28,148 nt of DNA from UHGV virus genome UHGV-0040697, one strand, 5' to 3'. The DNA comes from a virus. The position numbers are program-made. This document shows positions 1 to 3,000 of the stretch, in pieces; position 1 is the stretch's first letter; each line of letters opens with the position of its first letter.

Positions 1-3000
1 ATGAAGATTCCGACGTTACTAACTGAGTGTTGTATCTAATCGTGGGGGCAGGTCAACACAGCTTAAACCTGCCGTCGAGCGGTTTTTTTGTACCTGTAAA
101 CCTGGTGCAGTACAGTAAACACGCTGGTGGTCGTGAATACTGACTTTTTATCTTGCTGGTTTTTTAGACAAGAGTTATTGGTATGTCATGTTAACCAGAA
201 GGGAAAAAGACATGCTAAAACAGCAAGATATGACAGAAACCGCCGCCGCAGTCCTTCATTTCTTACCTGCTGACAAGTGGGTAACGCCACGCATGATGAC
301 GAGAACTACCGGAGTAAGCGAAGCCCGGTGCCAGTTAATACTGACTCAGTTAGTTCTGGCGGGTCTGGCGAAGGATAACGGCGGGTACGGGAATAAATTC
401 AGACGCTGCCAGTAATGGCGGTTTCCTGCTGTGAAAATGGGCGGCTGGTGGGTGTTGGTAGCACCTGCCAGCCATTCGCTCATGCTTACTGGTCACAAGC
501 GAACCACGGCCCACTGCTTTAGCGCAAAAGCAGAGTGAGCCTACCAGAGTTACGCTTACTGATCCATGAGAAATACTGTAAAAATAAACAGTGTTGATTT
601 AATCAACGCTGATTGCCTGCATTTTATTCAGTCCTTGCCTGATGATTCCATTGATCTGATTGTTACCGATCCGCCGTACTTCAAAGTGAAGCCCAACGGC
701 TGGGACAATCAGTGGAAAGGGGACGAAGATTACCTGAAGTGGCTGGACTACTGTCTGGCCCAGTTCTGGCGGGTACTGAAACCAGCCGGAAGCCTTTACC
801 TGTTCTGTGGACATCGCCTCGCATCTGATATCGAGATCATGATGCGTGAACGTTTCAACGTGCTTAACCATATCATCTGGGCGAAGCCGTCCGGACGATG
901 GAACGGGTGTAATAAAGAAAGCCTGCGGGCATATTTCCCCGCTACAGAGCGCGTTCTGTTTGCTGAACATTACCAGGGGCCATATCGCGGCAAAAGTGAC
1001 GGTTATGCGGCAAAAGAAAGGGAACTCAAACAGCACATAATGGCACCGCTGATTTCGTATTTCAGGGATGCTCGTGCCGAACTGGGTATAACGGCAAAAC
1101 AGATTGCCGAAGCCACTGGTAAGAAAAACATGGTTTCCCACTGGTTTGGTGCCAGTCAGTGGCAGTTGCCGAATGAGGCTGACTACCGGAAGTTACAGGC
1201 ACTGTTTTCCCGTATAGCGGCAGAGAAGTTTCAGGAACAACAACTGGAACAACCACACCACCAGTTGGTGGAATCTTATGATTCACTGAATCGAAAATAT
1301 GCTGAATTGCTGGATGATTTTAAATCTCTCCGGCGCTATTTCTCCGTATCAGCCACCGTGCCTTATACCGATGTCTGGACGCATAAACCCGTTCAGTTCT
1401 ACCCGGGTAAACATCCGTGTGAGAAACCTGCGGATATGCTCCGGCAAATAATCAATGCCAGTAGTCGACCAGGTGATCTGGTTGCTGATTTCTTTATGGG
1501 ATCCGGTTCCACAATAAAAGCAGCAATGGCGCTGGGGCGTCGGGCGTTAGGTGTTGAACTTGAGTCAGAGCGGTTTAATCAGACGGTGAAAGAGGTAAGT
1601 GAACTGGTGGGGAAATAATTCTGGTGGCCACGTTGCGTGGCCTTTTTATTTCCAACACAGCACCCGCAAATATCGCGAGGTGAGAGATGACGAAATGCCT
1701 CATAACCCAAATACCTGGCCGGACTGGCTGGAGTTGTTTCAGAGCTGGTGGCGTGGAGACACACCGCTGGGTGCAGTGATTATGTCGATCGTTATGGCTG
1801 GTTTGCGCATCGCCTATTTTGGCGGTGGTGGTGGCTGGAAGCGAAAAACGCTCGAGATTTTGCTATGTGGCGCTCTGACGCTGACCTTTGCATCCGCTCT
1901 TGAATATGTCGGATGGCCTAAATCGCTTTCTGTTGCCATTGGTGGTGGCGTGGGGCTGATCGGTGTCGATGCTATTCGTGGGGCTGCAATGCGAGTAATC
2001 GGTAACAAATTTGGTAGCTCGAAGGAGTAATTTATGCAGGCACTAAATTCCCAGCGTAAAGCTTTCCTGGATATGGTGGCATGGTCAGAAGGAACGGATA
2101 ACGGGCGACAACCGACACGTAACCACGGTTATGATGTTATTGTTGGTGGCGAACTGTTCACTGATTACTCCGATCACCCTCGCAAACTTGTCACGCTAAA
2201 CCCCAAACTCAAATCAACAGCTGCCGGACGTTACCAGCTTCTTTCACGCTGGTGGGATGCTTACCGTAAACAGCTTGGCCTGAAAGATTTTTCTCCAGAA
2301 AGCCAGGACGCTGTAGCTCTGCAGCAGATTAAAGAGCGTGGTGCTTTACCGATGATTGACCGCGGCAGTATTCGTCAGGCAATCGACCGTTGCAGCAATA
2401 TCTGGGCGTCGTTACCTGGTGCAGGTTACGGTCAGTATGAACATAAAATCGGTGACCTGATTGCCCGATTTAAAAAAGCTGGTGGGGTAGTAAATGAAGC
2501 TGAGATATAAGCTGGTTATTGTTGCCTTCGTTGTTAGCGTCATTGGTTCCTTCATCTGGTCTGCTGGACATTACTACAGCAAATATCAGCACGAAAAGGA
2601 GCGTGCTGATGAGGCTGTACGAAATGCTGAATCAGCAACTGCCATTACCCGTAACGTTCTGCAATCACTGCAAATCATCAATACAGTTATAGAGGCTAAC
2701 CAGCATGCAAAACAGCAGATCGCACTGGAGTCACAGAGAACCCAGGAAGATATCAAAGTGGCTGTTGCGGATGATGATTGTGCTTCACGTCATGTGCCTG
2801 CTGCCGCTGCTGACCGGTTGCGGAAGTACGCGAACAGTTTACGTGCCGGTTCCGGCGGTACCGCTGCCAACAAGCCTGACCACTGAAACGCCCCAGCCAG
2901 TCATTCCCGACCCGCTGACCTATGGGGCCAGTCTGGATCTGAATGTGAGCCTGCTTTCGGCGCTGGGCCAGTGCAACATCGACAAGGCCAGTATCAGGAA

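Follow-up and report, generated by a model that had tools for sequence, protein, structure and literature searches.

First, short-read contigs broken at insertion sequences (ISs) end about one k-mer inside the repeated element on both sides, and de Bruijn assemblers usually end contigs at multi-copy repeats. Second, phages of the SfII, SfI, SfIV and SfV group have an HK97-like head and a Mu-like tail, carry a gtr cluster beside attP, and integrate into thrW beside proA. Third, IetAS, the pair of IetA and IetS, is reportedly an anti-phage defence system, said to have been described by Gao et al. in 2020. Fourth, ISSen4 is an IS with a length of 1,221 bp (PMC5088012). All of these meet in UHGV virus genome UHGV-0040697, a stretch of 28,148 nucleotides (the window) whose two ends form a perfect 57-bp inverted repeat. 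It was found that the arms of this repeat are the right (orfB-3') ends of a known ISSen4-like element of the IS3 family that is common in E. coli. Very probably, two ISSen4-like copies lie here in inverted orientation about 28 kb apart, and a short-read contig ended inside each of them. The element, its behaviour and its effect on assembly are thus already known overall. The two insertion sites, one at the Q/late boundary of a prophage and one in ietA, are new to the complete-genome set, and are unremarkable as such; what they add is a record of two previously unlisted sites of a common E. coli IS.

The repeat itself is exact. Positions 1-57 are the reverse complement of 28090-28146, and pairing is lost at base 58; about 2e-26 such 57-bp inverted pairs would be expected by chance in 28 kb, so the repeat is real. 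The IS accounts for 55 of its bases, with the IS terminus ...GGTCA at window 55 and TGACC... starting from 28092, and the remaining two (AC at 56-57 and GT at 28090-28091) are flanking target DNA that agrees by coincidence. The right arm is two bases longer and runs to the window end at 28148. IS copy 1 is therefore represented by its terminal 55 nt (1..55, plus strand), with its body off the left contig end, and IS copy 2 by its terminal 57 nt (28092..28148, minus strand), with its body off the right contig end. Both stubs are the end of the element that carries the right terminal inverted repeat (IRR). That the repeat measures 57 bp is due to the assembler and to the 2-bp coincidence of the flanks, not to biology. 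A preliminary description of this DNA, made from the sequence alone, had reported a perfect 57-bp inverted repeat, had read it as the inward-facing ends of two inverted IS copies, and had likened the inner terminus to an IS3-family end. The exact pairing, the complete identity of both arms to the IRR end, and the match to elements that RefSeq annotates as "IS3-like element ISSen4 family transposase" bear out each of these points.

The identity of the element comes from comparison with five annotated copies, those of E. coli C, FAM21845, CH4804, WP8-S18-CRE-02 and plasmid p888-46E9a. The left arm is identical to their right end at 55/55 positions, and the right arm at 57/57. The IRR of IS copy 1 (plus strand) ends at window 55 with the terminus ...GGGGGCAGGTCA, and the right arm begins TGACCTGCCCCC..., both of which are IS ends of the TG...CA type. 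Full copies are 1221 bp long, equal to the published length of ISSen4, and extend from the left terminus TGACCTGCTCCCC... to the right terminus ...GGGGGCAGGTCA (TGACC...GGTCA); the left end of the IS sequence reads TGACCTGCTCCCCGTTGATTAG. Their terminal inverted repeats are imperfect, in that the left one (IRL, TGACCTGCTCCCC) and the IRR (TGACCTGCCCCC) agree at 11 of the first 12 bases. The transposase gene of the full reference copies is in two parts (orfA/orfB) and is labelled "programmed frameshift" by PGAP. The reference transposase has the Pfam domains HTH_Tnp_1 and rve/rve_3, and it scores 243 bits against NCBIfam NF033516 (IS3 transposase), for which the cut-off is 160. A 59-nt query from the left end of the window matched at 738 places, almost all with an identity of 99% or more; these are spread over 371 of the 5426 complete E. 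coli genomes, and the ISSen4 annotation lay over 20/20 of the matches listed. The window differs from these copies in holding stubs only, with the rest of the element (body, transposase and left end) outside it, and the name is assigned via RefSeq annotation. All that the window holds of the transposase is the last seven sense codons and the stop of orfB, which in IS copy 1 occupy 3-26 with the stop at 24-26.

The full copies also inform about target sites. The E. coli C reference copy (L001 1335-2555, 1221 bp) is flanked on either side by the 4-bp direct repeat ACAG, and matching 4-bp duplications were found in three of the five inspected copies (ACAG, ACAT and AAAC). Including the two junctions of the window, seven IRR-side flanks can be compared (ACAG, ACAT, ACAT, AAAC, ATCA, ACAC and ACCC); the flank begins with A in 7/7 and with AC in 5/7. 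This bias may be a weak target preference beside the IRR, or chance. If it is a preference, it would explain why the repeat is read as 57 rather than 55 bp. In FAM21845, two IS copies bracket ygeG at a distance of about 0.8 kb.

The position of the repeat at the window edges has a plain cause. By exact-protein look-up, the window was found to be the entire draft contig QRHT01000043.1 of GCA_003470915.1 (28148 bp), and the repeat sits at its edges because the whole contig broke inside the repeated IS. The assembly stopped about one k-mer inside the multi-copy IS at each end. The end geometry would fit a de Bruijn graph with K = 57, in which the right end is 57 nt of IS and the left end presumably stops at the 57-mer (55 bases of IS and two of flank) that merges both junction paths. 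No difference from other short-read contigs broken at ISs was found; the contig looks inverted only since both neighbouring copies show the same end. As both stubs are the IRR end, at least two IS copies in inverted orientation are required. A single IS copy closing a circle was considered as well and is ruled out by the same fact. In general, perfect inverted repeats at the ends of draft contigs usually represent repeated mobile elements, not a structure of the enclosed DNA.

The right junction, in which ietA is joined to the IS, is also present in two other, independent assemblies (ENA ERZ28667913 scaffold_44 and ERZ27255630 k141_3156). The reach into the IS past this junction is 53 nt in the metagenome scaffold, 57 nt here and 139 nt in the MEGAHIT k141 contig. 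This recurrence bears on the idea that the repeat is a chimeric or hairpin-like artefact of the contig ends and that the genome has no inverted IS pair. It is true that the repeat coincides exactly with the two ends of the contig, that its length is of the kind an assembler produces, and that no other contig has shown the left junction. Nevertheless, the right junction recurs with three assemblers in three datasets, both junctions fall at the true IS terminus (TG...CA) with perfect flanks, and ending within a multi-copy IS is the normal behaviour of short-read assemblies rather than a sign of a chimera, so that we regard an artefact of this kind as very improbable. The preliminary description had allowed for an assembly artefact and had noted that the copies run past the window edge. 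On the first point it was half right, in that the edge position and the length of the repeat come from the assembly, but the repeat is genuine DNA. On the second, the copies do continue, but the window is a complete whole-genome shotgun contig, not a slice of a longer sequence.

On the left, the exact insertion point is seen by comparison with uninterrupted relatives (L010, L013 and L002), which read ...TTACTTCGCC/ACACAGCTTAAACC across it, or ...GGTTACTTCGCC/ACACAGCTTAAACC with longer left context (a slash marks the insertion point). One of them, L013, is 100% identical to window 56-2186 and runs 9.5 kb further left, through the gene of a DUF6731 protein, Q and early genes. The IS site is in an intergenic stretch of about 300 bp between a leftward accessory gene on the Q side and the first late-side open reading frame (ORF). 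A terminator-like hairpin with a run of seven Ts (71..90, plus strand; a consensus pattern match only, made on the identical sequence of L013 at 9506-9518 plus the T-run) is located 15 nt right of the left IS end and upstream of the first late-side ORF. Intact relatives have an opposite-strand terminator-like site about 50 nt left of the hairpin (L013 9442-9454). Since opposed terminator-like sites flank the point, the IS appears to have been inserted between two face-to-face sites of this type, as far as pattern matches can tell. A search for promoters in the intergenic region between Q and the late genes yielded none that could convincingly serve as the late promoter. The left IS separates the SfII-like late genes from the Q side, and whether the prophage is disabled by it depends on the position of the late promoter and on Q-modified read-through of the 1.2-kb IS.

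On the right, the IS lies in the first gene of an island adjacent to thrW, which occupies the window from 27131 on. This gene, ietA (27594..28094, plus strand), encodes an AAA ATPase and is truncated to 166 of 328 codons; its stop codon, TGA at 28092-28094, is made of the first three bases of the IS. Intact ietA reads ...CGCTATATGGGT/GAAACTGC, and the IS comes after GGGT, at the base that follows ...TATATGGGT. The ORF of the window matches the PADLOC IetA models, with E=5e-30 for the window fragment and 4.5e-77 for an intact homologue. The Pfam AAA domain covers residues 127-252 of intact IetA, and thus the cut after codon 166 is inside the domain. In intact relatives, the next gene encodes IetS, an S8 peptidase of 829 aa (IetA and IetS, L003 7989-11473). 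The locus differs from them in that ietA is cut and ietS is outside the window, beyond the IS. ietA is certainly broken, and presumably the IetAS system of this strain is inactive, judging from the truncated gene. It was found that 33 complete genomes are 99.3-100% identical up to 28091 (25 are listed at 100%) with an intact locus beside thrW; the ietA::IS junction is in none of the 33, and neither insertion junction is in any of the 5426 complete E. coli genomes. The two sites are those that the preliminary description had pointed to when it placed the left copy against the late regulatory region of a prophage and let the right copy cut an AAA ATPase ORF.

Three short contigs from other samples end close to the right insertion point. 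L007, L008 and L009 match the 5' part of ietA with 100% identity and end exactly one base past the IS point (window 28091 plus one; L007 1929-1930, L008 1019-1020 and L009 604-605), on G, the base of the intact allele. These end points may have been selected for by the exact-protein look-up, or may mark a graph branch in mixed populations with and without the IS.

The stubs and the insertion points are best accounted for by two separate insertions. One copy would have been inserted into the Q/late intergenic region of a prophage in thrW, and the other into ietA just past attR, both with the right (orfB-3') end facing inward. Each would be a simple copy-out/paste-in insertion with a 4-bp duplication. 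The inner copies of these presumed target-site duplications would be ACAC (56..59, no strand) beside IS copy 1 and GGGT (28088..28091, no strand) beside IS copy 2. The early prophage region, and the 3' part of ietA with ietS, would then follow directly after the IS copies, on other contigs. The expected outer junction on the Q side would read ...GGTTACTTCGCCACAC/TGACCTGCTCCCC, and that on the ietA-3' side would consist of the reverse-complemented left end of the IS followed by the duplication and the rest of the gene, GGGGAGCAGGTCA/GGGT/GAAACTGCAGC. Searches for these predicted outer junctions, with their ACAC and GGGT duplications, gave 0 matches in IMG/VR and JGI metagenomes. Homologues of the DUF6731 protein and of IetS at 99% identity occur in other genomes (GCA_003028145.1, GCA_025429285.1 and ERR7420768), in which the sites are uninterrupted.

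Two simple insertions would also account for the gene content of the contig. Near-identical relatives free of the IS have an early region of about 13 kb reaching to thrW, as well as the 3' part of ietA and ietS, and these are missing here. The preliminary description had noticed that early genes are absent and had proposed a prophage split from its integrase and immunity region. Indeed, none of these genes is in the window. However, they are missing because the whole contig stops at the IS, so that no rearrangement is needed and a split of the prophage is superfluous. Most likely, the early region is on another contig beyond the 1.2-kb element. The break of the assembly at the IS thus explains why the contig contains only the late half of the prophage.

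Several observations weigh against two simple insertions. Only the inner flanks (ACAC and GGGT) are visible, so that the duplications are presumed, as is an unbroken course of the prophage and of ietA through the ISs. Two of the five reference copies, L020 (FAM21845 3146943-3150000) and L023 (plasmid p888-46E9a), have flanks that differ from each other, a hint that copies of the ISSen4-like element have recombined in the past or have lost DNA between them; recombination between IS copies thus occurs in E. coli. For the left inner junction, scans of IMG/VR, of JGI metagenomes and of the GTDB representatives gave 0 matches, and none of the complete E. coli genomes covers it. Finally, the record QRHT01, like other QR..01 records, presumably belongs to the CGR project, and its origin from a SOAPdenovo short-read assembly is likewise presumed. 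Illumina reads were used in the CGR project and were assembled with SOAPdenovo, with K tuned for each genome (PMC6784896).

In another history, both IS copies exist as described but the locus is rearranged, either by an inversion of the 28 kb (through RecA recombination between the inverted copies or intramolecular replicative transposition of one of them) or by loss of DNA next to an IS, such as the early region or the 3' part of ietA with ietS. The prophage would then no longer be joined to Q, immunity and integrase. The preliminary description had proposed that the segment is invertible by homologous recombination; this is possible in principle, and the contig neither supports nor refutes it. 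Inverted repeats of 1.2 kb at a distance of 28 kb are substrates of inversion, and the product of such an inversion, or of a replicative one, would yield an identical contig with IRR stubs inside both ends. The non-matching flanks of the two reference copies, for example L020 in FAM21845, are in line with such events. The right junction is also found on a 60.9-kb scaffold (L005), which reaches well past the 28-kb spacing of the junctions; in the overlap, it has no protein identical to one of the window. From this scaffold, the insertion in ietA is possibly the older event, and the left copy may have come later. However, nothing in the window requires a rearrangement, and the contig break fully explains the missing genes. 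IS3-family copy-out/paste-in transposition gives simple insertions, and past both inner junctions the sequence goes on as in intact relatives, with nothing lost. A rearranged locus is therefore unlikely, but we give it a real minority chance beside the two separate insertions.

The DNA between the arms also speaks for two separate insertions. It belongs to an SfII/SfV-like serotype-converting prophage, of which it is the late part (56..27083, plus strand), as seen from Pfam labels and nucleotide identity. From 56, the genes are a 67-aa ORF, a DNA methyltransferase, holin, endolysin and spanin (by Pfam), followed by HNH, terminase, portal, protease and capsid genes, a Mu-like sheath, tube and baseplate, and a tail fibre with its chaperone. 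The gtrC/gtrB/gtrA genes (24368-26882, minus strand; Pfam labels) follow toward the attachment site. Shigella phage SfII is 98% identical over 81% of the query window 56-25055, and the intact prophage that E. coli MDK9L1 carries, free of the IS, matches 98% of that query at 99% identity. The order in MDK9L1 is proA, thrW, int, early genes, Q, accessory gene, 67-aa ORF, methyltransferase and late genes, and the intact relative is located between proA-thrW and paoD. The attR core, the 3' 46 nt of tRNA-Thr (thrW), was placed at 27084..27129 (plus strand) as the only stretch common to AR_0061 and L007/L008. In AR_0061, the prophage is followed by paoD, with identity to the window up to 27130; in L007/L008, a full thrW is directly followed by the ietA region, with identity from 27084. 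No complete tRNA is in the window. The IetAS island is directly downstream of thrW in lysogens and also in non-lysogens (L007). The window thus has the SfII-homologous late set, gtrABC beside the attachment site and the thrW attR core of an SfII/SfV-like prophage. It differs from SfII, SfI, SfIV and SfV in its own gtrC, an extra acyltransferase, and a module of the methyltransferase and the 67-aa ORF at the start of the late region, and in that the prophage is interrupted by an IS and its early half is outside the window.

These placements make it hard to believe in a composite transposon that would move the phage late genes and the gtr and acyltransferase O-antigen genes as a unit. All that recalls such an element is that cargo DNA lies between an IS and its inverted copy. 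Its inner junctions are placed as two separate insertions, one in a resident prophage and the other in a resident island, and throughout the cargo the DNA runs collinear with that of relatives whose thrW locus is uninterrupted. Moreover, the outer ends of a composite transposon of this layout would both be IRL, and junction scans of the 5426 complete genomes, IMG/VR, JGI and GTDB gave no second location. We consider its probability to be very small.

An equally slight chance is given to a cassette of 28 kb bounded by the ISs and invertible as a whole, with the late operon, the gtr and acyltransferase genes and the 5' end of ietA. If it were real, flipping would by turns link the late genes to Q-dependent transcription and cut them off from it, and would act as a population-level switch of prophage competence. 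No observation speaks for actual switching. A DNA-invertase switch of the Gin/Cin/Hin type was rejected, as the arms are IS termini, not crossover sites. No recombinase was found among the Pfam labels of called genes in window 1-11618 and 17594-28148, and the interval 11618-17594 is collinear with the SfII tail genes. Since the arms are IS termini and no recombinase was seen, any inversion would depend on general recombination.

Two further observations concern accessory genes of the prophage. An acyltransferase gene (Acyl_transf_3; 22600-23649, minus strand) lies between the tail-fibre chaperone gene and gtrC and is intact here; its product is possibly an O-antigen acetylase, to judge from the domain. 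In AR_0061 (L015 2935-5050), the same acyltransferase is split by IS903B in surroundings that are 99.9% identical. Just downstream of the tail-fibre assembly gene is a weak inverted repeat of 31 nt (21986-22016 and 22129-22159), whose arms are 71% complementary and separated by 112 nt. At the equivalent place, a relative (L003 4090-4330) has two oppositely oriented fragments of tail-fibre-assembly genes, and the repeat at 21986-22159 may be what is left of a cassette for tail-fibre inversion.

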